A DNA stretch of 46,580 nucleotides, filler included, from Jimgerdemannia flammicorona (Eukaryota), in assembly GCA_003990765.1 (NCBI GenBank). It is 2 parts of 2 records of this genome, joined end to end, with 100 filler letters (N's around TTAATTAATTAA, not from the genome) between each part and the next. Parts side by side here need not be neighbours in the genome. Positions count along the whole stretch, not along the records: positions 1 to 23,240 come from RBNJ01001132.1; 1 more part is not named here. One strand, given 5' to 3'. The notes beneath the pieces are model-generated. The model was not told the DNA's origin and made no database searches. It worked only from the letters and a program-made list of their open reading frames with translations. Both the position numbers and the translations under genes were made by a program. This document shows, piece after piece, positions 1,000-45,716 of the stretch. Position 1 is the first letter of the stretch; each line of letters begins with the position of its first letter.

Positions 1000-2252
1000 T
1001 GTAACGTACTTGGCTCAATGGAGGCAAATTACAAAGTTGGGGGTTGATGTAGTTTGGCTTGAGCCCCCAGGTACTTTGTTAAAAGCAACAAAATGTTCTT
1101 GGTGTTTAGCAGTATAATAGTCAAGATCTGGATACTGTGTGAGCGGTTTCCTTTTTGGGACAGGTTCTTGGGTGTAGCGGCGATTTGTGTATGTGAACGG
1201 GTTTCCTTCTTGGGTCAACAGGGAATGCCACAATTTTTGTATAGCGAGGCAATCTCCAAAAGTATGTGATTTCTGGCATGACGATCTCTTGTATAGCGCG
1301 ACGATCTTGGTGCGACGATCTCTATGTAGCATGACTGGGTTCCTTATGCATGTCGGTCTGGCAATTTAGCAGTTTTTCCTTCTTGGGTGATGGCGATCTC
1401 TACATGACGATCTCCGTGTAGTGTGACGATTTCAAAAGTATACGATTTCTGGCAGATAACTCGATAACTCAGGCTCACTGGGAACAAACAACACGGATGT
1501 CATGAATTGGGCTCTTACTTGGGTGGCACGGATTCTTCCTGAATCGGTGGCTTCAACTGGGATTAACTCGGATGGCGAGAGTTCTTCCGAATCCGGCTCT
1601 TCTGGGAATACGGCGAATAACTTGTAAACAGCGGACGACGTGGATTCTTCCTGAATCGGCGGACTTCTTGGAAACAGTGGCTTATTCCTTAAGCGGCGGA
1701 TTACTCGAAAGGTGGCGAAGTTCTTCACTCGAACTTAGGCAGCAAATCTTCAGGCTTATCTGGCAAGCGAACCAACAATGGCAGCTATTTCTTAGCGGCG
1801 GACTTTTCTTCAGGCTTATCTGGCAAGCGAACCAAAAACGAACTCATTACTTGTATCAGAAAGTGGACCAGAGTGGGGAAATAAGCTCACAATCTCCTAG
1901 CAGTGGCTATAGAGTTCCTCTTGAAGTGTGGTAGGCAGACTTGTCTTTTGCTTCAATTTCGGACTGAGGTTTATTCACTCTTGTCTCTGGGGTAATTTAT
2001 ACATTGTGGTTGCTATCTGGTTGGGATCTGGCTAACTATAGATTTGCTATTTATGGTGTATTTTGGGTGGACAGCTACTGTCCAGCAGACAGCCACTGTC
2101 TGGGGGACAGCCACTATTCACATTATTCTCTTCTTTGGCTATCTGGTTATTTATACATTTTTTGCAGTAATGGTTGCTGGTTACTATGCTATGCTAATGT
2201 TCACATCACCTGGTCAGGTTTTGAGATTGCTACATTTTTGTGGTTTGTCACA
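1000..2252 (-). repeat. 3' LTR of A1
   Basis: Collinear with 11012-12276; TG...CA ends; purine-rich AGTGGAGGCTGA immediately upstream on minus (PPT-like, ~2253-2264). Confidence 0.95.
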
Positions 2253-2291: not shown

Positions 2292-2795
2292 TCAGTCATC
2301 ATCTCAATAAGCATAAGCTGCTTCTGCATCTATACCTGTTCCATCATCTTCATTGTCTGTATCAGGGTTGCTCTATTCTAGCTCTGGATCTTCTTGTTCT
2401 TTGGAAAACAGGATGTCTACTTGCTGAAGAATACTCTGAAAGGTGGTCTCATTCATCTGATGAATATCGTTAAGGTAGAAGTGAGACTGCACCAGGGCTC
2501 CAACATTTCATTTGTACAAGGTATAGATTCTTTTGACAGTTCTTGCTTCTCGGTGGATTATGCCAGCTAGTCCTCCAATATATGGCTGTTCTTGAAGTAG
2601 TTGTCCAATATTGTAGAAGGCCTATAGATGGTGGATCTGTAACAATCTTTGGGCAATGGCAAGGTTCTCCTGATACTTCTGGATCAATTGTATTGGGGTT
2701 CCTTCAAGTTGGTGGAACTGGGGTAAGGGAACTGGTAGAGCCTGGAAAGAGCTGAGGACCAATTTCTGGAGGTGCTGATCAATCCTTTGGCTCAT
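2292..2795 (-). pseudogene. Accessory ORF3 of family A (167 codons, unknown function, acidic tail)
   Basis: ATG overlaps the integrase TGA (ATGA). Reads MSQRIDQHLQKLVLSSFQALPVPLP...AFYNIGQLLQE...KRIYTLYK...DNEDDGTGIDAEAAYAY*DDD* with internal transition-type stops; in-frame homolog at 43883-44395. Confidence 0.8.

Positions 2796-4755: not shown

Positions 4756-4794
<39 letters not shown>
3569..4794 (+). mobile_element. 5'-truncated non-LTR (LINE-like) retro-insertion into the A1 integrase
   Basis: ~36-nt poly(A) at 4759-4794; AATAAA at 4729-4734; 17-bp TSD AGAGGTCCAATTACATC at 3552-3568 and 4794-4810; G-rich body with only a weak resemblance to a LINE ORF2 C-terminus. Confidence 0.85.
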
Positions 4795-6922: not shown

Positions 6923-7324
6923 TGAGCTTCCAAATCCTTTGGCTTGTCTTGTTCCTTCAGTCAGTTTGGACACTTCTTGTAATTGTGGGGTTCTGACCTT
7001 CATGAAGACTGCTTGGGCAATCTTCTGTCCTCTAATGATTCAGTGCCATTCTGCACTGCTATTGTGTAGGATAACCTTGATTTTGCCTATATATCCTGGG
7101 TCAATGTTTCCTCCTTCTATAGTTATTCCTTGTCTGGCAAGTCCAGACCTTGAGATCAGTTGGATGTAGGTTCCTTGAGGTGGCTGCATGGCTAGTCCAG
7201 TTCTGATCATAAACATTTTTCCAGGCTTGATGGATTCCTCCTCCAGACTATGAAGTTCATACCCTACATCCTCTAGGTGGGCTTTGGTTGGGGGTCTGGC
7301 CTTGGGATGCAGCAGGGCATACTG
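6923..7324 (-). pseudogene. Trimeric dUTPase domain in the A1 polyprotein
   Basis: All five motifs: DVGYEL, SRSGLA, GNIDPGYIG, KIAQ, RQAKGFGSS; one internal TGA. Confidence 0.93.
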
Positions 7325-10990: not shown

Positions 10991-11009
10991 ATTCCCAGTT
11001 GAGCCCCCA
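10991..11009 (-). promoter_or_regulatory. Primer-binding site of A1, tRNA-Pro-like
   Basis: TGGGGGCTCAACTGGGAAT 2 nt after the 5' LTR; resembles the MLV tRNA-Pro PBS (TGGGGGCTCGTCCGGGAT). Confidence 0.75.
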
Positions 11010-11011: not shown

Positions 11012-12276
11012 TGTAACATACCTGGCTCAATGGAGGCAAATTACAAGGTTGGGGGTTGATGTAGTTTGGCTTGAGCCCCCAGTTACTTTGTTAAAAGCAA
11101 CAAAATGTTCTTGGTATTTAGCAGTATAATAGTTAAGATCTGGATACTGTGCGAGCAGTTTCCTTTTTGGGACAGGTTCTTGGGTGTAGCGGCGATTTGT
11201 GTATGTGAACAGGTTTCCTTCTTGGGTCAATAGAGAATGCCACAATTTTTGTGTAGCGAGGCAATCTCCAAAAGTATGCGATTTCTGGCGTGATGATCTC
11301 TTGTATAGCATAATGATCTTGGTGCGACGATCTCTGTGTAGCGCGACTGGGTTCCTTATGCGTGACGGTCTGGCAATTTAGCGGTTTTTCCTTCTTGGGT
11401 GACAGCGATCTCTGCATGACGATCTCCGTGTAGCATGACGATTTCAAAAGTATACAATTTCTGGTGGATAACTCGATAACTCAGGCTCACTGAGAACAAA
11501 CAACTCAGATGTTGCGAATTGGGCTCTTTTGGGAATAATACTTGGGTGGCGTGGATTCTTCCTGAATCGGCAGCTTCAACTGGGAATTAACTCAGATGGC
11601 GAGAGTTCTTCCAAATCGGGCTCTTCTGGGAATACGACGAATAACTTGGAAATGGCGGACGACATGGATTCTTCCTGAATCGGCAGACTTCTTGGAAATG
11701 GCAGCTTATTCCTTAAGCAGCGGATTACTCAAAAGGTGGTGAAGTTCTTCACTCGAACTTAGACAGCAAATCTTCAGGCTTATCTGGCAAGCGAACCAAC
11801 AATGGCAGCTATTTCTTAGTGGCAGACTTTTCTTCAGGCTTATCTGGCAAGCGAACGAAAAACAAACTCATTCTTTGTATCGGAAAGTGGACTGGAGTGG
11901 AGAAATAAGCTCACAATCTCCTAGCAGTGGCTGTAGAGTTCCTCTCGAAGTGTGGTAGGCAGACTTGTCTTTTGCTTCAATTTCAGACTAAGGTTTATTC
12001 ACTCTTGTCTCTAGGGTAATTTATACATTGTGGTTGCTATCTGGTTGCTATCTGGCTAACTATAGATTTGCTATTTATGGTGTGTTTTGGGTGGACAGCT
12101 ACTGTCCGGTGGACAGTCACTGTCTGGGGGACAGCCACTGTTCACATTATTCTCTTCTTTGGCTATCTGGTTATTTATACATTTTTCGCAGTAATGGTTG
12201 CTGGTTACTATGCTATGCTAATGTTCACATCACCTGGTCAGGTTTTGAGATTGCTATGTTTTCATGATTTGTCACA
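11012..12276 (-). repeat. 5' LTR of A1
   Basis: Collinear with 1000-2252; followed on minus by the PBS. Confidence 0.95.
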
Positions 12277-12606: not shown

Positions 12607-12771
12607 TGTTGAAAAGAAGGATATTTTTATTGAATTTTCATAAGATATATATTACTGATGGATGATATAAAGTCAATGAAATTGCCAGTTTTATGTTGAA
12701 ATATCAAGTTGCTATCTCACTTCTGCTCAATGAAATATGTAAAAAAACAAAAGGGGGATATAAAATATATC

Positions 12772-12843
<72 letters not shown>

Positions 12844-24896: not shown

Positions 24897-25994
24897 ATGA
24901 CTACTGAGATCTATACCCATATCCACGCTGACATTTGGAATGCCATTATCAATAGAGCCACACCCCCTCTGCCCCTCATGAATATCTATAGTCTAGCACC
25001 CCTCTACTTCGTGGAAGCCCAATGGAATGCTCTGAACATGCTTAGTGAGGCCTACCGAATTGGACAAATCTCAAGCTACTACTAGATCAGCCACCTCCTG
25101 AAAGACATAATCGAGCACCACCATGATACAGACATTACCCAGATGTCCCAACACCAGAAGCTCATTGCCCGCAAATATCAAGAACTCTTCTATGAGTATA
25201 GTACCATTATTTTCTATCTCCAAGTTACCACCAGTGAAATGGTCGCTACCCTATCCTATGGCCAAATTGATGACATGATACAAGAACTCAACCACAAGTA
25301 TCTCGAGTATGTTAAAACTACAGACAGAATCTTCCCACACCCCAATGATTATATCCTGCAAATGCTCTAAGTTGGATATGCCATGAAGGACATCTATGAT
25401 ATAATCCACTTTGATGAAGATGAAGCAGAAGACAATGATCCCTCTGACACCGACATGATCTCTAGCCAAGGATCTCTGCCAACCCTGATCACACTGCCAA
25501 CCTTGCCAATGAACTTACAACAATTCATAACAGCCTACAAGACTTATTAGGACAATGACCACTAGCACGAATGCCAACCTACATTTACCCCCAATTACTT
25601 CAACTACAATGAAGAGACTGGAGAACACAACCTGTACCTCCAGACAACCCTTGAGATTGAACCAACCACTTTACCACCCAAGTACAAGCGACATAAATTA
25701 TAGCCACCAGCTTACTACAACCCTGTGACTCATAGTACCATAACCTATAGAAGGTATACAGATAGTGAAACCAATAAAAGTGAAGATAATACACCCCTCC
25801 TTTGCTCACTAATACCTTACCCAGCATACGAGACTGATGATGCTATCTTGTGGAATAGAGATAAAGTTCCAATGTATTATTACCTCAGCAAACAAGGAGA
25901 AGTAATCCATGAACCACTTTTCCTGGATGACTACTTTATCAGAGATGATGCAATTGATAGTGATGTCATTGAGGACTACCCAGATAGTGCCTAA
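24897..25994 (+). pseudogene. LTR(U3)-encoded 365-aa protein, B2 copy
   Basis: 1098 bp ATG-to-stop, MTTEIY...DYPDSA*; interrupted only by transition-type stops. Confidence 0.85.
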
Positions 25995-28686
25995 ACCATA
26001 AATAGCCTAGCAGTCATAGTATAGTTAGATTAGCCTTATATGATGTGACTGTAAACTGACTCAATCTCTTGACATATCAGATCACACTTGTACTACATGA
26101 CTGCATTCTAACTCAGCAAAGCACTTAGTACTACATCTATATCTAGCATAGTCCAGATAGCCCCTCACTAGTATAAATACCCCTTCTCCCAGACCTCAGA
26201 ATCTCAGACTCAAATGTACAAGAACATTCCTAAACACTTCTCTACAATATCCCTTTACACAACAACTCCTAGTATAGCAATATCATGAATAGCGAATAAA
26301 CCTATTTAATAACCCATAAACCACTCTTAAGTAAATCTGCTCCCTGTTAGGTTCCACTCCTAACCCCATCATGAAAATTCCTACTTGGGTATTATCTGCA
26401 GCGATACACCAATTCAACTAAGCTGGTCTTAGTTTCTTGAACTTCTTGAAATATGGAAAACCCTGAACATCCAGAACTAGTCCGAAAAAAGGACTTTAGT
26501 TGAGACGTCAACCTGATCTTGAAATCAATAAGCGTAGAGGATATACTCCATACAAAATTGATCTTGACTATAAGAAAACAGTCTTCCAGAATATCTAGAA
26601 CTTCCAGAAAACCCTTCCAGAACTACATAATGGTTACCTTAAATAGCAATCCTCTTACAACTTGATAGCAGTGGTTTACAATCCAATTCTGCTTCAAGAT
26701 GCTTCCTCACCCCGCTACAAACCCCTCTGCGAATTCCTACAAGTTGGTATAAAGCCCAACCTCTGAACTGGAATTTATCCAAACCATCTGACAATCTGGA
26801 GAGAATTGAACCTGATGTACAAGGACAATTTGACCTCCACACCTGCAACAAATAGGATAAACTTTATTCAAAGAAAGAAGTACTCCGGTTAAACCAGCAA
26901 ATAGGTGAAACCCTATTCACTGAACTCCTTGCACTACATCCAGCAAGTCAAGATGAAGAAGGTCTTATTGAAGCCTTCTTTACTCTTCTCAACAAGAGTT
27001 TTGTCAGCTCCACAAATCTGAGCGATCTAGAACAACCAGCAGCAGTCTTTCTAGCCTTAGTTCCTCATGAAGCCCAAGCCTCTGTAGCCAAGTGGCTCAA
27101 CTCTACTGACTTTCACTGTACCAGGACCAAGACCACATTATACTATCGATTCCAGAATAGCAAGGCCTACCATATTCTTAAAAAAGAAGCAAGAGAAACC
27201 CTTCATTAACTACCTGACCCCAAACCTGAAACAGACCCTGCTACAGCCCTACCTGAATCTGAAACCAATACTGAACCTGAACTTGACTTTGAATTAAGTC
27301 CATCTGAAATCAGATATACAACTGATTCTGTCTACTTTGACGCTGAGCAAACCCAATTATATGGGGACCAAACTGAAGAAGAGGAGGAGTATCTTAGTGA
27401 ATTCGATCCCAGATATACCACTGAAGGAGAAGTACCTCCATCAGGACAGAATACACCTATACAGCAACAAATAGTTATCTATCAAGCCCTCACTCCAGAC
27501 CCACAACTACTACTCCAGCAACTTACATAGACCCAAAGAACCCCATCACACTCTGCACCAGTACCTCAAATAGTACCAGTAATACCACTATCAGTAGTCC
27601 AATTACCTCCAGTAAACAATATAGCGAACCAACAGATTCTAGACCTCACAGCCCAGGTAGCTATAATGGCAGCAACCATTACTGCCTTAGCTGAACAGAC
27701 CTGACCTACCAAAAATCTGAGCCTACCTACCTTCAATGGTACTGCACAAGAAGTCCAAAGCTTTATTAGTATAGTTGACACTAACTTCAAAGCCAATCAA
27801 TAGACTAATGAGTGAGTTGCTGACCGTGTTCTGACAAACAATCAAGACCACACTCTGGAACAACTCTTTGCTACCACTACAGCCTATGTTCGCTGAGTTG
27901 TTACATTCTTCCAAGAACCTGCCAAAGAATAGTGGCAAATCCTTCCTGAAAAACCCCTCACATGGGATACCTGATCTGCAGTAGTTGCTCAGAATGTAGC
28001 AAACAATGCCTGTAAGAGAGTTACTATTTAGGGTAACTGTTACATAGTTCTGGAAAGGTTTTCTGGATATTCTAGATGTTCTGGAAGACTGTTTTCTTAT
28101 GGTCAAGATCAATTTCATATGGAGTATGTCCTCTATACTTATTGATTTCAAGATTGGGTTGATGTCTCAACCAAAGTCCTTTTTCAGACTAGTTCTGGAT
28201 GTTCAGGATTTTCCGTATTTCAGGAAGTTCAAGAAACTAAGACTAGCTTAGTTGAATTGGTGTATCACTGCAGACAATACCCAATTAGGAAATTTCGTGA
28301 TGGGGTTAGAAGTAGGACCTAACAGAGAGTGGATTTACTTAAGAGTAGTTTGTGGGTTATGGAATAGGTTTATTTGCTATTCATGATATTGCTATACTAG
28401 GAGTATTTGTATGAAGGGATATTGTGGGGAAGTATTCAGGAATGTTCTTGTGTGTTTGAGTCTGAGATTCTGAGGTCTGGGGGAGGGGGTATTTATACTA
28501 GTGAGGGGCTATCTGGACTATGCTAGATATAGATGTAGCACTAAGTACTTTGATGAGTCGGAATGCAGTCATGTAGTACAAGTGTGATCTGGTATGTCAA
28601 GAGATCGTTGGACTGCTGAGTCAGTTCACAGTCACGTCATACAATGCTAATCTAACTATACTATAACTGCTAGGCTATTTATGGGT

Positions 28687-29784
28687 TTAGGCACTGTCTG
28701 GGTAGTCTTTGATGACATCACTATCAATGACATCATCTCTGATAAAGTAGTCATCTAGGAAGAGTGGTTCACGGATTGCTTCTCCTTGTTCACTAAGGTA
28801 GTAATACATTGGGACTTCGTCTCCATCCCACAGGATAGCATTGTCTGTCTCATAGACTAGATAAGGTGTTGGTGGACAAAGGATGGGTGTATTGTCTTCA
28901 CTTTCGTCAGATTCACTGTCTGCATACCTTCTATAGGTTACAGCACTATGAGTTGCAGGATTGTAGTAAGCTGGCGGCTGTGGTTCATGTCGCTCATACT
29001 CAGGTGGTAGTGTAGTTGGTTCGATCTCAAGGGTTGTCTGGAGGTACAGGTTGTGTTCTCCAGTCTCTTCATTGTAGTTGAAGTAATTGGGAGTGAATGT
29101 AGGTTGGTATTTGTACCAGTGGTCATTGTCCCAATAAATTTCATATGTGGTTATGAACTGTTGTAGGTTCATTGGCAAGGTTGGTGGAGTAATTAGGGTT
29201 GGCAGAGATCCTTGGCTAGAGGTCATGTCAGCATCAGAGGGATTATTGTCTTCTGCTTCATCTTCATTGAAGTGGATTATATCGTAGATGTCCTTTATGG
29301 CGTATCTGACTTGAGGTATTTGCAGGATATGGTCATCAGGGTGCAGGAAGGTTCTGTCTGTGGTCTGGATGTATTCGAGGTACTTGTGGTTGAGTTCTTA
29401 TATCATATCATCGATTTGGCTATAGGACAGAGTAGCAACCATTTTACTGGTAGTGACTTGGAGACGAGGAATAAAGGTGTTGTACTCATAGAAGAGTTCT
29501 CAATGTTTGCGGGTGATGAGCTTCTGGTGTTGAGACATCTGGGTAATGTCTATATCATAGTGGTGTTCAACCATGTCTTCCAGGAGGCGGCCAATCTGGT
29601 AGTAGCTTGAGATTTGTCTGATTCAGTGGGTCTCGCTAAGCATGTTCAGGGCATTCCATCAGGCTTCTACAAAGTAGAGGGGTGCCAGGCTATGGATATT
29701 CATGAGGGGCAGAGGGGGTGTAGCTCGGTTGACAATGGTATTCCAAATATCAGTGTGGATGCAGTTGTAGATCTCAGTAGTCAT
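28687..29784 (-). pseudogene. LTR(U3)-encoded 365-aa protein, B3 3' LTR copy
   Basis: 1098 bp, same frame throughout; CGA->TGA stop at ~29657. Confidence 0.85.
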
Positions 29785-30519
29785 GTTTGTGTGTTTGGAA
29801 GTTATGGTTGTTGTTTGTTTTGGTTCTCTGATTCGACATGTCTCGGTGCTCAGTATATATGCATTTGGTCCTGATTGGTACATAAGATTCCATTTGTGTA
29901 AATCTTGTGTTCTGTGACTTCGTATTGACTCAGCTTTGTGCACTGTGACTTCGGTTTGACTCAGCTTCGTGATCAAGCAGGTGATTTCCAGATTTGTTCA
30001 GAGGTCGCATGTAATTTCGGTGGCTTGTTCAGAGTGTGACATGTAATTTCGGTGGCTTAGAGGTTGTGCGCTTACAACTCTCCCCTTCTTAGCTTTCGAC
30101 GTCCTCGTTGGGGCCTTCTAATTTGTTCTAGTGTTGTTATACCATTTGGGAGGTCAAAAGTCTGGTAAGGTTCATTTTCTCAGAAAGTGGCATACTTATA
30201 GTACAGTTGCCTAACACGTTGGATTCATATGTTAAAGGGTCGTGTATTCAATACCATATGCCGGAAGTGATTCTGATGTCATTCACTGCTGGAGAATTTT
30301 CTCTAAAGAATCTTCTTAAATATCTATGCCTTGTTTCCCACCAGTGGTACAGGGAGAATAGGCTTACTTTCAGTTTTGCTATTTTTTCAGGGGTTCGGTA
30401 TTCTTGTCTTGTTTTGCTGAGTTCTTGGTTTGGTTCACAATAATTATAATGTTCAGGAGGATAATATATAGTATGTATGAATAGGTGCAGAATATTTGGT
30501 TCTAGTTGTTCAAGGAATC

Positions 30520-30670
30520 ATATTCCTGAACTAGGTCAGTAGCATTCTGGAGATTGGTCTTGAGTTCCCAGATTGCATCGTGGATCAGGTAACTTTTCCA
30601 TTTGACAAGGTACTCCAGATAGTTCTTGTTGCCACATTTGTTGAGGATTTGTTCAACTTCATACTCTTCT
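30520..30670 (-). other. Chromodomain at the integrase C-terminus
   Basis: EYEVEQILNK...EYLVKWKSY...AIWELKTNLQNATDLVQEY. Confidence 0.92.
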
Positions 30671-33600
30671 TGGTTATTAATAATGATAGGTGCAGGTGGT
30701 TTGGTGGTCCGATTTGGAAATAGCTTGTCATCATTGTCATTATATCACTTGAGACGTTGAACATTAAAGACTGGGTGAATCTTAATAGTGTCTGGTAGCG
30801 CTAGTTTGTAGGAGGTTGGAGAGACTTGTGCAATGACTTCAAATGGTCCAATGAACTTGCTGTTCAGCTTAGTAGATGGTCTGTGCTTGAGGTTATCAAC
30901 TCAGTATCCTCTGATATCTAGTAGGACGTTTTCTTCAATATCAAAGGTTTCTTCTCGGCAGTGTTGGTTAACATACTGTGACTGTTGTTCTTGAGCTCGT
31001 GATAAATTCTTAATTGCGATCTGACCTAGATTGTGCATTCGGAGTAGGAATTCTTCAACAGCTTCGACTGTGGAGGGTTTATCGGTAGTTTGGATAAGTG
31101 TCAAAGGGGTGTTCAGGTTTTGTCCAGTATTGGCGAAGAATGGGGTCATTCCAAGAGAGGCTTACTTGCTATTGTTGTAGGCAAACTCAACTGCAGTGAG
31201 GTGTTCATGCCAGTCATCTTATCTGTAAGAAACATAGTTCCTTAGCATTTGTTCCAGAGTTCGGTTCATTCTTTCAGTTTGGCCATCAGTTTCTGAGTGA
31301 AAGGCTGTGGATAGTGCAAGTTTTGTTCCAAGGTATGCATAGAGGGCTTTCCAAAAGTGGCTGGTGAATTTCGGATCTCAGTCACTAATAATGATCTTAG
31401 GAAGACCATGATAGTGGAAGATGTTGTCAAACAAGAGTATGACTATGTCTGGTGCTGTTGCAGTAGTGGTAGTAGGCACAAAGTGGGCTTGTTTGCTGAG
31501 GTAGTCTACAAAGACAACAATTGCATCTTTCCCATTCTTGGTTCGGGGTAGTTGTACAATGAAGTCTATAGAGATTTGTTCCCAATTTGCAGATGGTACT
31601 GGAATAGGGTGGAGTAAGCCGGGTTTTGCTAATGTTGAGGACTTGTTTCATTGGCAGACATCACAGGAAGTAATGTAGGTTTTGAGCTGATCTGCCATGC
31701 GGGGCCAATAGAAGTTTTGGGAGATAACTTCATAGCATTTGTCAAATCCTAAATGTCCAGCTGTAGGGGCATCATGACATTCAAATAGGATAGTCCTTCA
31801 GAGGTCTTGGTTGTTTGGAACATACAATCTGTTCTTATAGTAGATAGCATTGTCCTTGAGTTGGTATTGATTATACCAGGTATGCTTGTCAGCATCATCA
31901 TTGTTCAGGATTTCTCGGAGTGCTTGAGCTTCTTTATCATCAACATATACTGCAATGATTTGTTCTATGATAGTGTTGGTAACCAAGGTCAGAGTTTGGA
32001 TAACCTCTTCGATTGATGGTCTGGAGATTGCATCAGCAACAATATTTTCCTTGCCAGAGCGGTACTGGATTTTACATATAGTCAAAGTTGGTAAGAACTT
32101 TCATCCATCTGGCTTGCTTTCGGGAAAGGATAGCCTGTGTCTTGATGTTGACTAATGACTTGTGGTCAGTCAATACCATGAAGTGTGCTCCTTCTAGGTA
32201 TGGTTGCCATTTGATCAGAGTGTCTATGATGGCTAGCATTTCCTTCTCGTGAGTTGTATAGTTGATTTCGGTATCATTGAACTTGCGGGAGTGATAGGCC
32301 ACAGGGTGTCCTTCTTGCATGAGTACTGCTCCAAGAGCTAGGTCAGAGGCATCAGTAGTGACTTTATATGGTAGGGCAGAGTTTGCTGCTTGAAGTACTG
32401 GAGTGGTTATCAAGGCATCCTTCAGTGCTTGAAAGGCGGTATCTTGTTCATATCCCCAATTTACAAGATTGTTGAAGTCTTTCTCTTATTTCATGGTCCA
32501 AGGTTGTTCTTGTTTCTTGCTGTGCTTGGTCATTTGGGTGAGGGCAGTAGCGATTTTAGCAAAGTTGGCAACGAATTGCCTGTAATAGTTTGCTAATCCT
32601 AGGAATGACTGGAGGTCTTTCAGCTTCTTGGGTCTGGACCAATCCTTGATTGCAGAGATTTTGCTGGGGTCCACTTTGATTCCATTTGGTGTGACAATGT
32701 GTCCAAGGAATTGAATTTCTTTCAGAAGGAATTCACACTTGCTGAGTTTTGCAAAGAGTCGGTTTTCTCGGAGTTTCAGTAGTACTAGTTCAAGGTGTTC
32801 AAGATATTCCTCCAGGGTTTTACTAAAGACTAGGATGTCGTCAATGTAGACAACAATGAATTTGTCTAGGTATGGATGCAGAATGGTATTCATCAGTATC
32901 TGGAAGGTTGCTGGAGCATTAGTTAAGCCAAAAGGCATAACCAGGAACTCGAAGTATCTATAGCGAGTTCAGAAAGCTGTCTTGTAGATTATCTTCTTCT
33001 TTCATGGCAATTTGCCAGTAACCATTTCACAGGTCAAAAGAGCTCATGAATTGTGGGTTGGTAAGTCTATCGAATATTTCATCGATCCTTGGTAGTGGGC
33101 AACAGTTCTTGATGGTCTGTTCATTGAGATTGCAGTAGTCAATGCACATTCATAGGTCTCCTCCTTTCTTGACAACGAAGAGGACTGGTGCACCATAGGG
33201 GGATATGCTGGGTCTGATGAATCCTTGTTCTAAGAGTTCGTTGATTTCCTTCTTGAGTGCATCAATTTCTCTCGGAGACATGTGGTAGGTTGACTTGAAG
33301 GCTGGTTTGGCATCTGGGATAGTCTTGATGGCATGATCTACTGCTCGTTTGGGGGGTAGGCCTTTCAGGAGCTTCCTTGGGAATATGTCTCGGAATTTCT
33401 GGAGTAGTGGTCTGACACGGCTGTCAACTTTGGAAAAATCTTCTTCAGAGTTCTCAGGTTCTCCTTTGGATGGTCGGATGGAGATGGCGAAGAGAGGGCA
33501 TTTCTTGGCCAATTTCTTGAGTTGTAGCTTGTTGATGTAGGTGATCTTTGGTCCAGGGTCACTAGAGTTGAGTAGGTCCTTTTCACCTTGTAGTTTGAAG

Positions 33601-34166: not shown

Positions 34167-34574
34167 TGATGAGCCAAATCCTTTGGATCCTCGGATGGTG
34201 GGCAGTAGTTCAGGGACTTCCTTGACTATCAGGGTTGACTCGATTTTTTCGAATAGGATCTGCGCGATGCAGAAACCAATAGGGATTTTGAAGGGTGTCC
34301 AACTGTGGTTTCGGATGAGGACAATGATTTTGCCTGTATAATCTTCATCAATGACTTCTCCTTCTACTGAGAGTCCTTTCAGTGCTAGGCTGCTGTGACA
34401 GCATATTCTTCCAACATGTCCTTCAGGGATTTGAATACTGATTCCTGTATAGACTTGTTTGACTTCTTGGTTAGAAACTGTAGCTTCTTCAGCTGCATAC
34501 AGGTCATATCCAGCTGCTTTTTGACTTCCTTTGGTTGGGGCCTTAGTAGTTTGTCTTAGCTTGACAAAGTCTAG
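34167..34574 (-). pseudogene. Trimeric dUTPase domain in the B3 polyprotein
   Basis: KGSQKAAGYDLY, HSSLA, EVIDEDYTG, IAQ, RGSKGFGSS. Confidence 0.95.
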
Positions 34575-37279
34575 TGTTCTGGTGGTCAGGTTGTTGAGGT
34601 GGTGCAGAGTTGTAACAGTTGCTCATATTGCTGTTCAGGGTTTTTGGTTGGGGCAGGCACTGGCTATGTGTCCTGTCTTTCGGCAATAGAAGCATGCTCT
34701 GCTTCTTTGAAGTTTGTTCCTTTCACCTTTAGTAAGTTTCTTGAAGGTACTTGGCTGGGTGGGTTCAGGATTTCTGGGTGTCCAAGAGGTGAATGTGGAG
34801 GGAGCTCGGGATGCTTCATGCTTGGGTTCTTCTTTCTTGGTCCAAGTCTTTTCCTTATTGTTGAATTGCCTTCGGGGCAGAATTGGTCCAGCTGTTAGGA
34901 TTCGCTTGACCATAGTCTTGATTCTTACCAGGCACCATTGTTGGTGATCACAACCAACTGGGCAGCCTTGTTCTCTGATTTTTCTAGTAAGCCATTCAGG
35001 CAGTGCATCGAATAAATGGTCTGCTCTTGTACCATTTCGTGCTTCATCATTGGCGATATATCCTAGGCCAACAGTGTTCAGGAGTGACTCGAGTTTTGTA
35101 CAGAAAGTTTCAAATTCTTCCTTGCCATGTATATCAAATTTGAGGTTGCAGAGTTTTACTCGAGATTCGGCAATCATGGTTTCACTGCGGTATTGAGCAA
35201 TCATGAGTTGTTTGAGTCCAGGGGCTGCAGGATGGGCTCCATATCCTGGGGCATTGTTTGCTGTATTCTGAGCAACTACTGCAGGTCAGGTATCCCATAT
35301 GAGGGGTTTTTCAGGAAGGGTTCACCACCATTCTTTGGCAGGTCCTCGGAAGAATGTAACAACTCGGCAGACATAGGCTGTAGTTGTAGCAAAGAGTTGT
35401 TCCAGGGTATGGTCTTGATTGTTTGTCAGAATGTGGTCAGCAACTCGCTCATTGGTCCATTGATTGGCTTCAAAGTTGGTGTCAACTATACTAATGAAGC
35501 TTTGGACTTCTTGTGCAGTACCATTGAAGGTAGGTAGGCTCAGATTTTTGGTAGGTCAGGTCTGTTCAGCTAAGGCAGTAATGGTTGCTGCCATTATAGC
35601 TACTTGGGCTGTGAGGTCCAGAATCTGTTGGTTCGCCATGTTGATTGCTGGAGGCGGTTGGACTGCTGGTAGTGGTGTTACTGGTACTACTTGAGGTACT
35701 GGTGCAGAGTGTGATGGGGTTCTTTGGGTCTGTTTAAGTTGCTGGAGTAGTAGTTGTAGATCTGGAGTGAGGGCTTGATAGATAGCTGTTTGTTGCTGTG
35801 TAGGTGTATTCTGTCCTGATGGATGTGTGTCTCCTTCAGTGGTGTATCCGGGATCGAATTCAGTGAGATACTCCTCCTCTTCTTCAGTTTGGTCCCCATG
35901 TAATTGGGTTTGCTCGGCGTCAAAATAGACAGAATCAGTTGTATATCTGATTTCAGATGGACTTAATTCAAGGTCAAGTTCAGGTTCGGTATTGGTTTCA
36001 GATTCAGGTAGGGCTGTAGCAGGGCCTGCTTCAGGTTCTGGGTCAGGTAGTTGATGAAGGGTTTCTCTTGCTTCTTCCTTAAGAATATGGCGGGCCTTAC
36101 TGTTCTGGAATCGGTAGTATAATGCGGTCTTGGTCCTGGTGCGGTGAAAGTCGGTAGAGTTGAGCCACTTGGCTACAGAAGCTTGGGCTTTGTGAGGAAC
36201 TAAGGCTAGAAAGACTGCTACTGGTTGTCCTAGGTCACTTGGATTTGTAGAGCTGACAAAACTCTTGTTGAGAAGAGTAAAGAAGGCTTCAATAAGACCT
36301 TCTTCATCTTGACTTGCTGAGTGTAGTGCAAGGAGTTCGGTGAATAGGGTTTCACCTATTTGCTGGTTTAACCGGAGTACTTCTTTCTTAGAATGAAGTT
36401 TGTCCCACTTGTTGCAGGTGTGGAGGTCAAATTGTCCTTGTATGTCAGGTTCAATTCTCTCCAGATTGTCAGATGGTTCAGGATAAATTCCAGTTCAGAG
36501 GTTGGGCTTTATACTAACTTGTAGGAATTTGCAGAAGGGTTTGTAGTGGGGTGAGGAAGCGTCTTGAAGCGGAATTGGATTGTAAATCACTGCTACCAAG
36601 TTGTAAGAGGGTTACTTTTTAGAGTGACCATTATGTAGTTCTGGAAGAGTTTTCTGGAAGTTCTGGATATTCTGGAAGACTGTTTTCTTATGGTCAGGAT
36701 CAATTTCATATGAAGTATGTCCTCTACACTTATTGATTTCAAGATTGGGTTGACGTCTCAACCAAAGTCCTTTTTTGGACTAGTTCTGGATGTTTAGGAT
36801 TTTCCATATTTCAGGAAGTTCAAGAAACTAAGACCAGCTTAGTTGAATTGGCGTATCGCTGCAGACAATACCCAATTAGGAAATTTCGTGACAGGGTTAG
36901 GAGTAAGACCTAACAGGGAGCGGATTTACTTAAGAGTGGTTTGTGGGTTATGGAATAGGTTTATTTGCTATTCATGATATTGCTATACTAGGAGTAGTTG
37001 TATGAAGGGATATTGTGGGGAAGTGCTCAGGAGTTGTGTTCAAATTGTTCAAGTCTGAGATTCTGAGGTCTGGGGGAGGGGGTATTTATACTAGTGAGGG
37101 GCTATCTAGACTAGGCTAGATATGGATGTAGCACTAAGTGCTTTGCTGAGTCAGAATGCAGTCACGTAGTATAAGTGTGATCTGACATGTCAAGAGATCG
37201 TCTGACTGCTGAGTCAGTTCACAGTCACATCATACAAGGCTAATCTAACTATACTATGACTACTAGGCTATTTATAGGT

Positions 37280-38381
37280 TTAGGCACTGTCTGGGTAGTC
37301 CTTGATGACATCACTATCGATTGCATCATCTCTGATGAAGTAGTCATCTAGGAATAATGGTTCGTGGATTACTTCTCCTTGTTGGCTGAGGTAGTAATAT
37401 ATTGGGACTTCATCTCCGTCCCACAGGATAGCATCGTCTGTTTCATATGCTGGATAAGGTGTTGGTGGGTGAAGAATGGGTGTACTGTCTTCGCTTTCAT
37501 CGGATTCACTGTCTGCATACCTTCTATAGGTTACAGCACTATAAGTTGCAGGGTTATAGTATGCTGGCGGCTGTGGTTCATGTCGCTCGTACTCAGGTGG
37601 TGGAGTGGTTGGTTCGATCTCGAGAGTTGTCTGAAGGTACAGGTTGTGTTCTCCAGTCTCTTCATTATAATTAAAGTAATCGGGGGTGAACGCAGGTTGG
37701 TATTCGTGCCAGTGGTCATTGTCCCAATAAGTCTCGTATACAGTTATGAACTGTTGTAAGTTCATCGGCAAGGTTGGCAGAGTGATCAGGGTTGGCAGAG
37801 ATCCTTGGCTAGAGGTCATGTCGGCGTCAGAGGGATCATTGTCTTCTGCTTTATCTTCGTCGAAGTGGATTATATCATAGACATCCTTCATGGCATATCT
37901 GACTTGAGGCATTTGTAGGATGGGGTCATCAGGGTGCGGGAAGGTTCTGTCTGTCTGTGGTTTCGACATACTTGAGGTACTTGTGGTTGAGTTCTTGTAT
38001 CATGTCATCGATTTGGCTGTAGGACAGGGTAGCAACCATTTTGCTGGTAGTAACTCGGAGACAGGAAATAAAGGTGTTGTACTTGTAGAAGAGTTCTCGA
38101 TGTTTGTGGGCGATGAGCTTCTGGTGTTGAGATATCTGAGTAATGTCTGTATCATGGTGGTGTTCGACCATGTCTTCCAGGAGGCGGCTGATCTGGTAGT
38201 AGCTTGAGATTTGTCCGATTCGGTGGGCCTTGCTAAGCATGTTCAGGGCATTCCATCGGGCTTCCATGAAGTAGAGGGGTGCCAGGCTATGGATATTCAT
38301 GAGGGGCAGAGGGGGTGTGGCTCGGTTGACAATGGTATTCCAAATGTCAGCATGGATGCGGTTGTAGATCTCAGTGGTCAT
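37280..38381 (-). pseudogene. LTR(U3)-encoded 365-aa protein, B3 5' LTR copy (intact except for one 4-bp duplication)
   Basis: ORFs 37929..38381 and 37280..37969 join after removing an extra CTGT at ~37947-37958; 1102-4=1098 bp. Confidence 0.9.
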
Positions 38382-38669
38382 GTTTGTGTGTTTGGAAGTT
38401 GTGGTTGTTGTTTGTTTTGGTTCTCTGATTTGACATGTCTCGGTGCTCAGTATATATGCATTTGGTCCTGATTGGTAAGGTTCCGTTTGTGTAGATCTTG
38501 TGTTCCGTGACTTCGTATTGACTCAGCTTTGTGCACTGTAACTTCGGTTTGACTCAGCTTCGTGATCAAGCAGGTGATTTCCAGATTTGTTCGGAGGTCG
38601 CGTGTGATTTCGGTGGCTTATTCAGAGGGTGACGTGTAATTTCGGTGGCTTGGAGGTTGTGCACTTACA

Positions 38670-41600
38670 CCTTCCTGAACCCCCTCACCTTTTGTCCCTA
38701 AGACAAATGAGTTGCTACTAGAAGATGAAGAAATGGAATAAGAAGAACAGAAACCTGCTGCCCCAAAGCCCAAGAAGAAGTACACTCCAAAGATCATGCC
38801 TAGAGATATCTACAATGAAGCCTGACAGAAGATTCAAGAGACCAAGATGGAGGTCCCTCTTCTGTAGTTCCTGTAACTAATACCAGCTGGAGTCTGAAAC
38901 AAATTATTGAGAACCATCAGATCTAGCACTGGCCAAGTCCCTATCCCACAGCAAGAACCAGCTTCCATTCTTGTTCAGGCCACAGAAAGACATATTAGTA
39001 CCTATTTACATAGAGATATTAGAGAACAAAAAGCAAAAATCCTCATAGATACAGGAGTAGCTATCTGTGTTATTGCCAAATGATTCCTGGACACCCTCTA
39101 ATAGCCCATTGATGAACCATCTAACCTCAGCATCATAGTAGCAGATAGAGCCCAAATTCAACTTCTTAGAGAAGTATAAAATATCACTATCTCTCTTGGA
39201 CACATTCAGTTCTCCATCTCCAAAGCTATTGTTACAGAAGCTGTCATCTATGATATAATTCTTGGCACTAACTGGATGAAGGAAATGAATGCAGTTGTTG
39301 ATATTGGTCAACAAGTACTCAAGTTTGACTACCAAGACAAGAAGTACAGAGTTAAGGTGACCAGCTATAAGCAATCAAAGAAGAAGAAGAAGGTCACTAT
39401 TCAGGAGAAATATATTAGCAGTGAAGAATCTACCACAGAAGAAGAGGAAAAATCTGAAGATGGAAATGATCCCAGACTCAACCCCTGAATTAATCTGGTA
39501 GATAACAGACCAGAAGTCAATGTGTGGGCCAAGAATACCATCCCTATCACCATTGGAGCCATTGCAGGAGAAATCAAAGGATGCCCTACCTGCCTCAAGA
39601 GACACAAGTATCCTGAGCATTCCTCCAAGATCATGGGAACAAGGAAATTGCCTGATACAGTCTGCCTAGAGTGCAGAAAAAAGAAGAAGAAATGTAGATA
39701 TATTTCAGAAATATCTACAACTGAAGCTGCAGAAGTACAAGTAATCTGAAGTCAAGAATCATCCAAGGAAGAAGAAACTTCTGACCAAGAAGTTCCTGAA
39801 CAAGAAGCACCTGAAGAAGAAGAGATCTCTAAACTCATTCCCTGGGATGATCCTCACTGGACACTACCTGAAGACAATGACCCTTGGAATACAGAAGAAA
39901 GACCCAGCACAATCACCATTATCCTCAAGAAAGAAACTCACCAAGAAAAGGCTTTTTAACTAGGAAAATGTCTATACCAAATGATCTTCCACTCTTCTCA
40001 AGACTACTGCTATCAGTGCCATTTATTAGACCAATAGGAGAGACAGAGACCCCAGAGACCAGAACCCCTGAACACAGTTGCACAGTCAACTATCTTCTAA
40101 GAAGTTACCACTAAGCTGTAAAGCTGATTCAGTAGACAAGGCCTCTTCACCCAGACAGAAGTATATCTCTTGTTTACTCTTCTATCTACTTATGACCAAG
40201 ATGGATACTGATTCCTAAAATAACAAGAGATCAATAACCAGGAATATCATTTCCAAGCAATGGGATATTGTAACCATAGAAGACACCCAGACTGCCAAGA
40301 CTGCAGGCATCAGAAGATCCATCTCAGTCATGATGTTGCAGTTCACACTTTGAAGAGAGGAGATAATCAAAGCCAGATCCAAAAAAGTAGACCAAAAAGC
40401 CAGGAAGAAGGACCCTCAAGATCTATAATTTAGGAGAAGACATCAGACATACAACCTACCAAGGATGGGCAGAAGATGCCACCAACTTTATAGAAGCCCT
40501 AGACTCTACAGGAAGAAGAGAAATCAACTATCTCTGAGATCCCTCTACTGGAGCCAGATGGCCACACCTCAACCTCAGAGCTTGGAGACTCTCTGCTAGT
40601 GGAGCTTCAGCCTTAGAAAAGCTCAAACTTAGCAAGGATATTACCCAGTATGCCCTGCTGCATCTCAAGGCCAAACCCCTGACCAAAGCCCACCCAGTAT
40701 GATCTTTATAGTCTGGAGGATGAATCTATCAAACCTGGAAAAACCTTTATGATCAGAACCAGATTAGCCATGCAGCCACCCCAAGGAGCTTACATCCAAC
40801 TGACCTCAAGGTCTGGACTTGCCAGATAAGGAATAACTGTGGAAGGAGGAACTATTAACCCAGGATATATAGGCGAAATCAAGGTCATTCTACACAACAG
40901 TAGTACATAATGGCACTGAATCATTAGAGGACAGAAGATTGCCCAAGCAGTCTTCATGAAGGTCAAGACCTCACAATTACAAGAAGTCTCTGAATTGACT
41001 GAAGGGACAAGACAAGCCAAAGAATTTGGAAGTTTAGACAAGAAGAAAGTATACCTCCTTCAAGTTAACCACCTCAAGAGGAATATTCTCCAGCAAGTGT
41101 ACTAGCAATCAGTCAGATTGCACAAGAATCTTATCCTAAAGTCTGGAGAAAAAACTACCTTCGAAATCTTTGCACCACCTGATCCCAGAAATCTTTTTTT
41201 TGAACCTAAAGAAGATATCCCCCACCTGGACATAGAGGGATACACATTCCCTGATAAGATGAACCCAGTATACTCCTGAGCAACCAACCAAAGTTGAGAA
41301 ACCATCATCTTGCCAAAAGGAACTATCATAGGACACCTAGTACCTTATCTCAACCAAACTTATAGGGATGTTTATAAACTAAACCTATCAGGAAATGGCA
41401 AAAGGTCCCAGAAGAAAGGAAAGGCCCCTCTGCGACCCAGGAGACAGTGAAGCCTTCTACCAATATTAGAGAAGAATTGACACCCCAACAATAGCAACAA
41501 CTAGTAGAACTTCTCAACAAATATCAAGATATCTTCACTATCAATTATGACAACCTGCCATACAACCCATCATATCACTATAGCATAAATATAGAAAATA

Positions 41601-44600
41601 TAACACCCATCTGGCAGAAATCCTATAGAATATCCCATCACTTAAAAACATTCGAAAAAGAACACATTTAAGAACTCTTAGACAATGGAGTCATTTGACT
41701 CTCCATCAGCTCCTGGGCCAGCCCTATACTTATTGTACCAAAGAAAAGAGGATGGAGACTCTGTGTAGATTATAGGAAACTCAATTCAGTTACTGAAAAG
41801 GACACCTATTCTTTGCCCAGAATTGACAACCTCTTGGATCAGTTATAAGATACCAGATACTTCAGCAGTATGGACCTTTTCACAGAATTCCATGAGATCC
41901 CAAAGACATTTAAAAGACAGCCTTCCTTGCTCTAGGAAAACTGTTTGAATATCTCTGAATGTCCTTTGGACTCTGCAATATACCCCCCCACCTTTTAGAG
42001 GATGATGAATTCAGTCTATGCTCTCTTGATCCACCACTATCTTATTGTATATATAGATGATTCCAACATCTACTCAGCAAATTTTGAAGAATACCTGCAA
42101 AAACCACTTGAGACTGAATGTAAAGAAATACTACTTTGGAAAACAGAAACTTGAATTTCTTGGATTCATAGTTTCAAAAGAAGGAACCCATATAGATCCA
42201 AAGAAAACTGAGAAGATCAACAATTGGCCAGTATCCAAGACCCCAAAGAAAATATTATTATTTCTGATGCTAGTATCCTACTACAGAAGATTTATCAAGA
42301 ATTTTGTCCAAATTGCTGCCCCAATCTAAATCCTTCTCAAGAAAGAAGTGTTATTCAAATAGACAGAATCACAAGAAAAAGCCTTCAAAGAACTCAAGAA
42401 CTACATGACTATAGCACCAATCCTCATGTACCCCAATCTATAGAAGTCATTCATCTTATATATAGATGCTTCTAAAGATGGCCTCAGAGCAGTTTTAGCC
42501 CAAGAAGGATCTGATCAACAATACCATGTGATAGCTTATGCAAGCAGAGCTATCAATCAGCAGCAGATGAACTATGGTAGCACTAAACTGGAATACCTTG
42601 CAGTCATATGGGCAGTCACCCTGTTCAAGCATTATCTTATCAGAAAAAGATTCACTCTGATTATAGACCATATAACCCTTAAATAGCTATTCAACTGTAA
42701 GGAACTCACTGGAATCCTAGCCTGCTGGATCCTTATCCTTCAGGATTACAAGATCACTATCATCCACAAAGTAGGGAAAGCTCACAACAATGTTGATGTA
42801 CTTTCCCACCAGCTCCAATAAACCAGAAGAAGGGTGTCCCAAGGAACTACACTCTAAAGGAAGCTCCTCAGACCATCAAGGTACAAGAAAATCTCATCTG
42901 AAAAGAATATCAGAAAGCTCACCAAGGACAGATAAATATAGAAGAGAAGTTGTAAATAATACACCAATACTGGCCTAACTTCAGAATACAAGTTCAGGAT
43001 ATACTCAAGAAATGTAACATCTACCAAAAGTACCAAGGAAGGAAGAACTATCAAGCACTATTGTAACCAATCACACTACTAGACAACATCTTTCAGAGAT
43101 GGAGAGTAGATGTAATTGGACTGCTACCAGTTACACCAAGAAGAAACAAATATATTCTTATATTTGTAGAATATCTAACCAAGTGGCCCAAGGCTTTCCC
43201 AATGGAAATTACAGATGCCTTAACCATTGTAGGCCTTCTCCATGGACTCATACTTAGATATGGACCTCCAGAAGAACTCATCTCTGACTGAGGCACAGAA
43301 TTCATCAATAACATAATTACAAGTTATATCTAAATTCATAAGATCCACCTCAAATGGACTACATCATACCACTCTCAGATTAATGACATAACAGAGAGAA
43401 TGAACCAGACCATTAAGAAAGGACTTGTCTGAGTCAATCCTATCAATTGAGACATCTGCTTACTTGAAATCCTATGGGAAATTTGGAATACCCCTGTTAC
43501 CTCCACTAAATAAAAGCCATTCAAAATGATGTTTGTTAAGAAAATCAGAACTACTGACCATAAGAATCTCAGAGATCTTCTCAAGAAGGCAGAACAGTTA
43601 TGTAATCAAGCCTGAGATCAGATTGTCAAAGCCCAAGAAAGATAAAAAAAAGTATTATAACCAGAAATAGAAGGATCAGAAGATCAAAATTGGAGATCAA
43701 GTACTAGTTTGGAGAAGCATAATTGAAACTAATTTTGCCACCAAATTGGAGCCCAAATGGGAAGAATCTTATCTTATATACAATATTAGAGGAACTAGCA
43801 TCTATTTAAGAAGTATAGATGGATGAACCCTGAGAACACCAGTATATATCAATTGCCTCAAACTATATCTTCCCTCTATACTATGAGCCAAAGGATTGAT
43901 CAGTACCTCCAGACATTAGTCCTCAGCTCCTTCTAGGCCCTACTAGTTCCTCTACCCCAATTCAGCAAAGCTAATGGAAACCCCCTTCAGAAGATCCAAG
44001 TTCACTAAGAAAATCTCACCCTGGCCAGGTATCTACTACAAGTCCACTAACTGTAGGCCTATTATACAATTGGTGAACAATTGTAGAACCTTCCAGCCCC
44101 AGAGCAGACCTATATCAGGAACACCACAGGTCTGACCAGAAGAGATACTACTGCTGCAGACAGACTATACACTATTTACAAATGAAATGTCACAGCTCTG
44201 ATACAGATGCAGTTCTCTCTGAATGATATTCAAGAAATGAATTCTATTACCTATTTGAGCATCATCAATTCCATTGAAATTCTATTCTCTAAAGAAGAAG
44301 AGCCCATAGAATAGAGTGACCCTAGTACAGACAATGAAGATGATGGAACAGGTATAGATACAAAAGTAGCTTATACTTATTGGGATGATAACTAAAGAAC
44401 AGTCTGAGGCAGACTATCCTTCAGTAGGGGCTGATGTAACAAATCAAACATATCACCTAAATCATAACTTAGCCAGATGATGTGAATAATTAGCATACTT
44501 AACCAGATGACATAGGCTCCCAGTATGACAACTAGTATATCATAGTTACTTATGCCACCATACTTATAATTAGCCAGACATATCAGATAGAATCTGTTTA

Positions 44601-45716
44601 CCTATATAGACTCTGTATACCTACTATAAGTAGCAAATCTATAGTTAGCTATATAGCAACTAGATAGCAACCAACTTGTATAAATTACCCTAAAGATAAG
44701 AGTGAATAAATCTCAGTCCAAATTGAAGTACAAACCAAAGAAGTCTCTAAAGATTGAGCATTGGTCTCCTTATTCCCACTCTGGTCTACTTTCTGATACA
44801 AAGCTTGAAGATTTTGCTGCCAAGTTTGAGTGAAGAACTTTGCCATCTTTGGAATTATTGGTATACTTGCCAGACTAAGCCTGAAGAACCCAAGTTTGCT
44901 GCCAAGTTCAAGGAAGAACTTCACCACTATTTCTAAGTTATTTGCTGCATTCTCAGAGAGCCTACCCTTCTTGCCATAAGCCAGTCTCTTGATGCAACTT
45001 TGCAATAATCTGTTCATACAAACAAAGCCAGTCTAGATATAACTTGCTAAGAATCTGAGTTATTTTGCAATTGAAGCTACCAATTTAGGAAGAATCTATA
45101 TCACCCAAGTAGTATTCCCAGAGAGCCACCAATTCAGGAAGAATCTGTATTATCCATCATTTTCAAGTTATCCATATTTCTAGAAGAGCCTGATTCACAC
45201 CATCTGAGTAATCTATTATTTCCAGTAAGCTCAAGTTATCAAGTTATCTATCACCAGCATTATTCCCAGTTAGAAAAACCTGTGCCAAATTGAGTTATCT
45301 GTCAGATTACCAGATTGCACTGTATAAGGAATCTACTTGTACTATACAGGATCATCACACAGAGATCATCACATTACATGGAGATCGTCATATAGAAATT
45401 ATATAAGAAGAACTGCCAAATTGCCAGACTATCATATATAAGGAAGATCATCACACTATATACAAAATTCTACCAATTTCCAGTTGACCCAAGAAGGAAA
45501 TCTATTTATACACAAATCACCACTACACCCAGAGAACTGTCCCAATAAGGAAATTACTTGCAAATATCTAGTTTTGACTATTATATCACTAAACACCAAG
45601 GACCTCAGAAATCTTAGAACATTTTGTTACTTTTTAACAAAGTAACTGAGAGCTCAAGCCAAACTACACCAACTCCCAACCTTGTAATTTGCCTCTATTG
45701 AGCCAGGTATGTTACA
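38670..45716 (+). mobile_element. Gypsy family A copy 2 (5'-truncated, more degenerate)
   Basis: Collinear with A1 from ~9315 onward: PR ILIDTG (~39030), dUTPase ~40646-41036, RT, RH, uninterrupted IN; PPT-like AGTAGGGGCTGA; 3' LTR 44435-45716. Confidence 0.95.
43883..44395 (+). pseudogene. Accessory ORF3 of A2 (170 codons)
   Basis: MSQRIDQYLQTLVLSSF*ALLVPLP...AYYTIGEQL...DRLYTIYK...SLNDIQEMN...YTYWDDN*; same ATGA overlap with the integrase stop. Confidence 0.8.

Follow-up and report, generated by a model that had tools for sequence, protein, structure and literature searches.

Coding sequences situated in or across U3 are familiar from vertebrate retroviruses, where they include MMTV sag, foamy virus tas/bel and HIV nef. 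Outside animals and plants, the extra ORFs of LTR retrotransposons are poorly known. They are already described in such elements, fungal Gypsy elements included: in the available excerpts of Novikova et al. 2010 (PMC2864245), some fungal Gypsy elements are depicted with an 'additional ORF with unknown function', and the dUTPase of fungal Gypsy elements is reported to have been acquired independently, more than once. In bdelloid rotifers, according to the excerpted text of Rodriguez, Kenefick and Arkhipova 2017 (PMC5408684), the same ORF3 type is found in different LTR-retrotransposon lineages. In the Gypsy element Cer1 of C. elegans, the protein CERV is produced from a spliced mRNA and was shown by experiment to act in the nuclear export of Cer1 genomic RNA (excerpts of Sun et al. 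2023, PMC10309623).

Here we describe two extra ORFs, both real, conserved and orphan, carried by two families of retrotransposons (A and B) in Jimgerdemannia flammicorona. The window, i.e. the whole stretch of DNA that was analysed, is 46,580 nucleotides long and consists of two parts of the assembly GCA_003990765.1 joined by 100 filler letters, positions 1 to 23,240 coming from RBNJ01001132.1. Our main reading, to which we give a probability of roughly 45%, is that both ORFs represent an old, fast-evolving 3' accessory gene, possibly vertically inherited and perhaps adaptor-like in function. If their ancestry is common, they would define a new accessory-protein family of dUTPase-bearing Gypsy elements and show that an accessory gene can end up in the LTR once the polypurine tract has shifted.

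The elements of the window resemble the dUTPase-bearing fungal Gypsy elements of PMC2864245 in possessing a dUTPase (here at the N-terminal end of Pol), in the presence of a chromodomain in some of them and in their extra ORFs; the excerpts of that paper give neither a sequence nor a position for the extra ORFs and mention no ORF in U3. The rotifer elements (PMC5408684) are likewise dUTPase-bearing and retrovirus-like with varied ORF3s, but in the excerpted text these are enzymes or env-like proteins that can be recognised as such and show strong homology, whereas the two proteins studied here are orphan, predicted helical, and of unproven common ancestry. CERV, like them, is encoded by a Gypsy-type element as a novel accessory protein that is not an enzyme; its function is established by experiment (PMC10309623, excerpts), whereas our two proteins are likened to it by description. 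With this qualification, element-encoded regulators such as CERV and the retroviral 3' regulatory genes may be the closest functional models. As in the case of the family B ORF, sag, tas/bel and nef lie downstream of the polypurine tract and are hence present in the LTR; they belong to vertebrate retroviruses, and the B protein matches no Pfam family at E <= 10. A limited phrase search of the literature returned, among the matches listed, no LTR retrotransposon with an ORF of about 365 aa wholly inside U3. We consider as new the orphan ORF3 protein family of family A and the long conserved ORF lying wholly within U3 of a Gypsy LTR; the element-structure tables of PMC2864245 may bear on this novelty.

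Four retroelement copies, named A1, A2, B1 and B2, were delimited in the window by self-comparison and inspection of the repeat ends (Table 1). Forty window ORFs were scanned against Pfam, and pol domains were also scanned in L001, a metagenome contig of family A in which dUTPase, RT, RNase H and integrase are all intact and ORF3 comes next. The order PR-RT-RNase H-IN was found in A1, B1 and L001, and the carriers exhibit direct TG..CA LTRs with an adjoining primer-binding site and polypurine tract. Families A and B are two distinct Ty3/Gypsy (Metaviridae) LTR retrotransposons, the RT of A being 38-44% identical to that of B. In this respect, the analysis agrees with an earlier sequence-only reading of the window, which had proposed two distinct Gypsy families, each with an accessory ORF. 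The carrier details given by that reading were also recovered: family A has a 4-bp target duplication (ATAG, on both flanks of A1), a primer site reading TGGGGGCTC..., which we take to be the complement of the tRNA-Pro 3' end, and no chromodomain, whether in the ORFs of A1 or in the integrase of L001, which is intact and 361 aa long (Pfam); family B has a chromodomain and a primer site reading TGGTAGCAG..., presumably of the initiator-tRNA-Met type. Its statement that the carriers differ strongly stands as regards primer-binding sites and chromodomain, but a dUTPase that it had not described is located upstream of the protease in A1, B1 and L001 (PF00692), and the gene order is common to both families. 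Families A and B belong to the dUTPase-bearing Gypsy type described in fungi and share the order gag-dUTPase-PR-RT-RH-IN. Between L001 and B1, sequence identity reaches 40% over 89 residues for the dUTPase, 38% for PR-RT, 35% for RT-RH and 26% over 340 aa for IN; the gag proteins of A and B gave no match at E <= 0.01.

Table 1. Coordinates of the retroelement features, sorted by position in the window
Feature	Position	Strand	Details
A1 3' LTR	1000..2252	minus	TG..CA
A1 ORF3	2292..2795	minus	167 codons, 4 premature stops; follows integrase
A1 dUTPase domain	6923..7291	minus	PF00692, E 7.3e-14 and 2.9e-05; upstream of protease and RT
A1 primer-binding site	about 10992-11009		reads TGGGGGCTC...; after 5' LTR
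A1 5' LTR	11012..12276	minus	TG..CA; 92% identical to A1 3' LTR
B2	about 24657-28010	plus	LTR + gag fragment
B ORF, copy in B2 LTR fragment	24897..25994	plus	5 premature stops
B1 3' LTR	28011..30079	minus	2.07 kb, TG..CA
B ORF, copy in B1 3' LTR	28687..29784	minus	365 codons, 4 premature stops; LTR positions 296-1393
B1 polypurine tract	about 30080-30100	minus	precedes B1 3' LTR
B1 chromodomain	30505..30744	minus	PF00385, E 1.2e-12; C-terminal end of integrase
B1 dUTPase domain	34167..34544	minus	PF00692, E 9.5e-32; upstream of protease, same ORF
B1 primer-binding site	about 36588-36598		reads TGGTAGCAG...; after 5' LTR
B1 5' LTR	36602..38672	minus	2.07 kb, TG..CA; B1 LTR pair 90% identical
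B1 5' LTR signals	TATAAAT 37084-37090; AATAAA 36960-36965	minus	
B ORF, C-terminal part, B1 5' LTR	37280..37999	minus	other frame; frameshift just past ...TTDR
B ORF, N-terminal part, B1 5' LTR	37932..38381	minus	150 codons, no stop; protein P0002; stretch resembling A ORF3
A2 (family A copy with 5' truncation)	38669..45716	plus	abuts B1 5' LTR
A2 ORF3	43883..44395	plus	7 premature stops; follows integrase
L001 dUTPase region	L001 3-1382		basis Pfam

Several features of this layout were noted in passing. The B2 fragment stops exactly at the end of the B1 3' LTR (window 24456-28010, 28011), which points to nested or rearranged elements, and the 5'-truncated A2 begins precisely at the outer boundary of the B1 5' LTR (38669-38672). 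No matching target duplication flanks B1, and 185 bases of the B gag region recur at 24456-24643, upstream of the B2 LTR. Family A comprises about 3.5 kb between the 5' LTR and the dUTPase (window 7436-10722, minus), in which Pfam identified no family for the long ORF pieces (e.g. 10009-10722, 7827-8621) and in which no similarity to B gag could be detected; this region is an unusually large gag region, or else a further ORF.

In family A, the decayed ORF that the sequence-only reading had placed after the integrase at 2292-2795 (minus) was confirmed, and all the peptide strings it quoted were located in the sequence. Every one of the four premature stops of the A1 copy falls at a codon reading Q, R or W in intact relatives. 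The ORF ends 40 nt before the 3' LTR, and its start codon shares bases with the stop codon of integrase (ATGA) in both A1 and A2; L001 carries ATAA at this position, which removes the ORF3 ATG. A word-based search recovered 4 ORF3 relatives among 30 candidates, and HMMER with the A profile detected 5 proteins at E <= 0.001 among 1,835,955,588 representatives, all 5 belonging to family A. The ORF3 family is real but very restricted. Its intact relatives are 144-183 aa long and share 64-82% identity. Metagenome contigs searched with the A alignment yielded a single locus, L001. Over the 82 codons shared by L001 and A1, the differences are distributed as 18/9/35 by codon position, with 25 differing codons synonymous and 21 non-synonymous; this third-position excess is a signature of purifying selection in the ORF3 frame. 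ORF3 of family A is a genuine accessory gene. Its product consists of a basic, Q/L-rich domain predicted as helical (pI 9.6-10.3), followed by an acidic tail of 37-39 residues with 17-18 D/E, 4 aromatic residues and no K/R.

Family B exhibits an ORF of about 365 aa within its 2.07-kb LTR, present in three copies in the window and nearly open over 365 codons although these copies have diverged by 10-14%. A database relative of its N-terminal part (P0003, 128 aa) is 87% identical, and an intact relative of its C-terminal part (P0015, 247 aa) is 64% identical. The family B ORF is, as in family A, a genuine accessory gene. Its location in the LTR, more precisely in U3, had been correctly identified by the sequence-only reading; the ORF occupies LTR positions 296-1393. 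A TATAAAT motif (LTR 1583) and an AATAAA motif (LTR 1706-1708), both consensus matches only, are kept downstream of the ORF in 3/3 LTR copies, which positions the ORF in U3. The polypurine tract upstream of the ORF leads to the same conclusion and implies that the ORF is copied into both LTRs. No TATA-like motif was found upstream of the ORF within the LTR. The C-terminal 220 or so residues are conserved, acidic (pI 4.05-4.3) and aromatic-rich. In the three copies (37283-37999 minus, 28690-29370 minus and 25311-25991 plus), this region has an unusually high content of Tyr, Phe, Trp and Pro. The earlier remark that both proteins are followed by acidic tails consequently holds for A, but the B 'tail' is in reality this conserved acidic region of about 220 aa.

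Both proteins had been described as possibly undescribed, and neither the A ORF3 nor the B protein could be assigned to a described family by Pfam or by profile search. Seven proteins were compared with Pfam at E <= 10. No family was retrieved for P0002, P0003, P0009 and P0015, including those of the retroviral U3 proteins sag, nef and tas, for which Pfam presumably holds models, and the sole match among the seven, between P0004 and HHH_RecD2 (E 0.36), is at chance level. When compared with the sequences of the PDB, the A profile gave coiled-coil-type chance matches only (best E 0.012) and the B profile gave no match. The ESM Atlas provided no usable match for A (P0005) or B (P0002), and its model of P0005 has a pLDDT of 0.43. 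Pattern searches with the B alignments gave 247 matches in viral contigs for the N-terminal part and 592 in metagenome contigs for the C-terminal part, none of which was confirmed in either case. No transmembrane-like segment was detected in A ORF3 or in the B protein, the maximal 19-residue Kyte-Doolittle hydropathy being 1.36 and 0.86, respectively.

Three other identities of ORF3 were considered and discarded. An env-like protein of the errantivirus or Athila type was ruled out by the lack of a hydrophobic segment and of a Pfam family. A copy of gag was ruled out because the A profile, compared with the 513 window ORFs, matched no gag ORF. A fusion of IN and ORF3 by -1 frameshifting was ruled out because no slippery heptamer is conserved, L001 lacking the CCCAAAT of A1 and A2.

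We then come to the similarity between the two proteins, which the sequence-only reading had taken for a single domain of about 140 aa on the basis of blocks aligned by eye. BLASTP aligned A 22-70 with B 25-71 (23.5 bits, E 8e-4, 12/49 identical) and proposed two further segments, both non-collinear and non-significant. The second segment maps A 50-68 onto a different B site (88-106), which indicates a motif of low specificity. Using hhalign, A alignments of 5 or 9 sequences were compared with a B alignment of 4 sequences that are 78-87% identical. The resulting probabilities were 12% and 11%, with E-values of 0.0024 and 0.0028 over 47 columns (A 23-69 vs B 25-71). In BLASTP and hhalign alike, identity over the 47-49 matched residues is 23-24%. 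In 300 column shuffles of B, the hhalign score had a mean of 13.0 (sd 2.5) and a maximum of 23.5, so that none reached the real score of 25.4; the reversed-sequence controls scored 22.5 and 22.0. Pairwise Smith-Waterman alignment gave a mean score of 47.0; shuffles gave 27.8 +/- 2.8 (0/1000 reaching the real value) and reversed sequences 29.6. This signal is contained wholly within the first 75 or so residues (z = 7.3), the first 22 alone giving z = 1.1. Beyond, A 75-130 compared with B 77-128, corresponding to the third and fourth blocks of the eye alignment, gave z = -0.02, 476 of 1000 shuffles being at least as good. The region of the first two blocks (A 23-69 vs B 25-71) is therefore above chance and that of the last two is not, so that the similarity is confined to the N-terminal 50-70 or so residues and does not amount to a shared domain of about 140 aa.

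The profiles were also run against the 513 window ORFs of at least 40 aa. The two best non-A matches of the A profile were pieces of the B LTR ORF (E 0.058 and 0.11); for the B profile, no stop-broken piece of the A ORF was found among the best 16 matches. On unbroken sequences, the profile matches are reciprocal and in one register, they begin at equivalent distances from the start codon and their nominal P ranges from 1e-5 to 1.5e-2. The real scores were reached by 0, 11, 1, 2 and 3 of 5000 shuffles each, i.e. an empirical single-comparison P of about 2e-4 to 2e-3, which merits attention since each protein comes from the 3' accessory ORF of elements alike in build, but which is not significant after counting the choice among hundreds of ORFs. 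A search of 1.84 billion representatives with the A profile retrieved neither a B-type protein nor a bridging family. AlphaFold2 models had a pLDDT of 48.8 for A and 49.7 for B, both below 50 and too poor for a fold comparison. In these low-confidence models, the predicted helices of A (H2-17, H34-68, H81-129) and of B (H2-20, H28-55/62-74, H86-116, H122-146) follow a helix/loop order that is collinear within a few residues. All-helical proteins are often alike at this level of helix-loop order. Altogether, the borderline likeness of the first 50-70 residues suggests common ancestry, and we estimate at about even odds that these N-terminal residues of the A ORF3 and B proteins derive from one ancestral accessory gene; for the remainder of their length, no relationship is demonstrable. 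Judged from the sequences, the A-B link is at present a twilight-zone similarity, of interest mostly to mobile-element specialists.

The genomic context bears on the way such an ancestor would have been inherited. The accessory ORF is the 3'-most ORF of the genomic RNA in both families: in family A the order is IN, ORF3, 40 nt and 3' LTR, and in family B it is IN-chromodomain, about 400 nt, polypurine tract and U3 with the ORF. The earlier description of different slots is right in that one ORF follows IN and the other lies inside U3; but since both are last on the RNA, the difference reduces to the position of the polypurine tract. If the two ORFs are related, their N-terminal ancestral unit would run from a short helix through a P-L-P loop to a long helix that terminates in aromatic-x-I-x-x-L-L-acidic. 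It would have been transmitted vertically from a common dUTPase-Gypsy ancestor and would then have diverged fast, while the polypurine tract shifted and brought the accessory gene into the U3 of family B. Given relatedness, such vertical descent is likelier and more economical than module exchange.

The resemblance may also be fortuitous, A ORF3 and the B protein being unrelated lineage-specific accessory genes; we hold this to be a real possibility, if a somewhat doubtful one. Two helical, Q/L/I-rich proteins would each have happened on a PLP loop followed by a helix ending in aromatic-I-x-x-LL. Such a coincidence is consistent with the hhalign probability of 11-12%, with reversed controls at 22.0-22.5 approaching the real 25.4, with the lack of alignment past residue ~75 and with the alternative non-collinear BLASTP segment. 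The empirical P is only about 2e-4 to 2e-3 for a pair chosen by eye amid 513 ORFs, and an unrelated coiled-coil protein of the PDB is matched by the A profile with 18.6 bits. Chance accounts less well for the B pieces being the top two non-self matches of the A profile, for reciprocal profile matches in one register at an equivalent distance from the start codon, and for ORFs at the same RNA position in elements of the same gene order. A more radical view, that the ORFs are not genes but chance open frames in decaying repeats, could invoke the premature stop or frameshift present in 5/5 window copies and the lack of a Pfam family. This view is close to refuted, given the 18/9/35 third-position excess over 82 codons, the intact diverged relatives found for both families, and the A1 premature stops, each at a codon for which relatives have Q, R or W.

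The sequence-only reading had instead favoured a mobile accessory module captured by, or exchanged between, otherwise unrelated Gypsy lineages. The carriers do differ in primer-binding site, chromodomain and LTR length, and there are precedents for such traffic in ORF3 types common to unrelated retroelement lineages of bdelloid rotifers (PMC5408684, excerpts) and in the independent acquisition of dUTPase by fungal Gypsy elements (PMC2864245, excerpts). However, an exchange after the split of A and B would have left the module more similar than pol, and this is not seen: accessory identity, at 23-24% over 47-49 aa, does not exceed that of IN (26%) and is far below that of RT and dUTPase (35-40%). 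Exchange is thus unsupported. In addition, the dUTPase occupies the same place in both families, and no third carrier was found among 1.84 billion representatives or in viral and metagenome contigs. We consider capture or exchange quite improbable, an ancient exchange being conceivable, and retain descent from an old 3' accessory gene as the preferred reading. None of the results points to the counter-defence role that the sequence-only reading had considered.

Under this preferred reading, each protein would be a helical adaptor and would use its acidic, aromatic-rich tail to recruit host machinery for the expression of the element itself, the recruited task being LTR transactivation or the handling of unspliced RNA. 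Acidic tails interspersed with aromatic residues are characteristic of regions that mediate activation or recruitment, and the composition of A ORF3 and of the B protein hints faintly at such an adaptor role. In family A, translation may proceed by termination-reinitiation at ATGA, a possibility opened by the overlap of the ATG with the integrase stop in A1 and A2. In family B, the protein may be made from a subgenomic or spliced RNA, which is the likeliest source because the LTR has no TATA-like motif upstream of the ORF. A more specific proposal, which we regard as unlikely, is that the orphan helical module is an ancient accessory gene of the dUTPase-Gypsy clade, always the last ORF, relative to which the polypurine tract has moved, and that its tail makes it a transactivator or anti-silencing factor. 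One lineage would then hold the whole gene in U3, every LTR, solo LTRs included, carrying a copy, and the factor would act through its acidic-aromatic tail in a genome that hypermutates CpG in repeats.

The state of the repeats was also recorded. The A1 LTR pair (1000-2252/11012-12276) differs by 80 transitions vs 9 other differences and the B1 LTR pair (28011-30079/36602-38672) by 174 transitions vs 22 other differences, many of them at CpG in both cases. The CpG observed/expected ratio is 0.23-0.37 in the elements and 0.07 in a block of 19-32% GC at 12.3-21 kb (12300-21000). Transition bias and CpG depletion together point to CpG-directed hypermutation of repeats.

Finally, some minor observations concern other parts of the window. 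The integrase gene of A1 is interrupted by an insertion of about 1.2 kb at 3571-4794 (plus), which is absent from A2 and L001, has a 35-base poly(A) end and is flanked by the 16-base direct repeat gaggtccaattacatc. No Pfam match was obtained in its three minus-strand frames, and it resembles a LINE-mediated retrocopy or else a SINE-like element. The stretch of 45-48% GC that separates the AT-rich block from B2 contains a 291-aa open frame at 21421-22293 (plus) with no Pfam family. Adjoining this frame, at 22836-23296, about 450 bases are open in all six frames and contain diverged tandem repeats.
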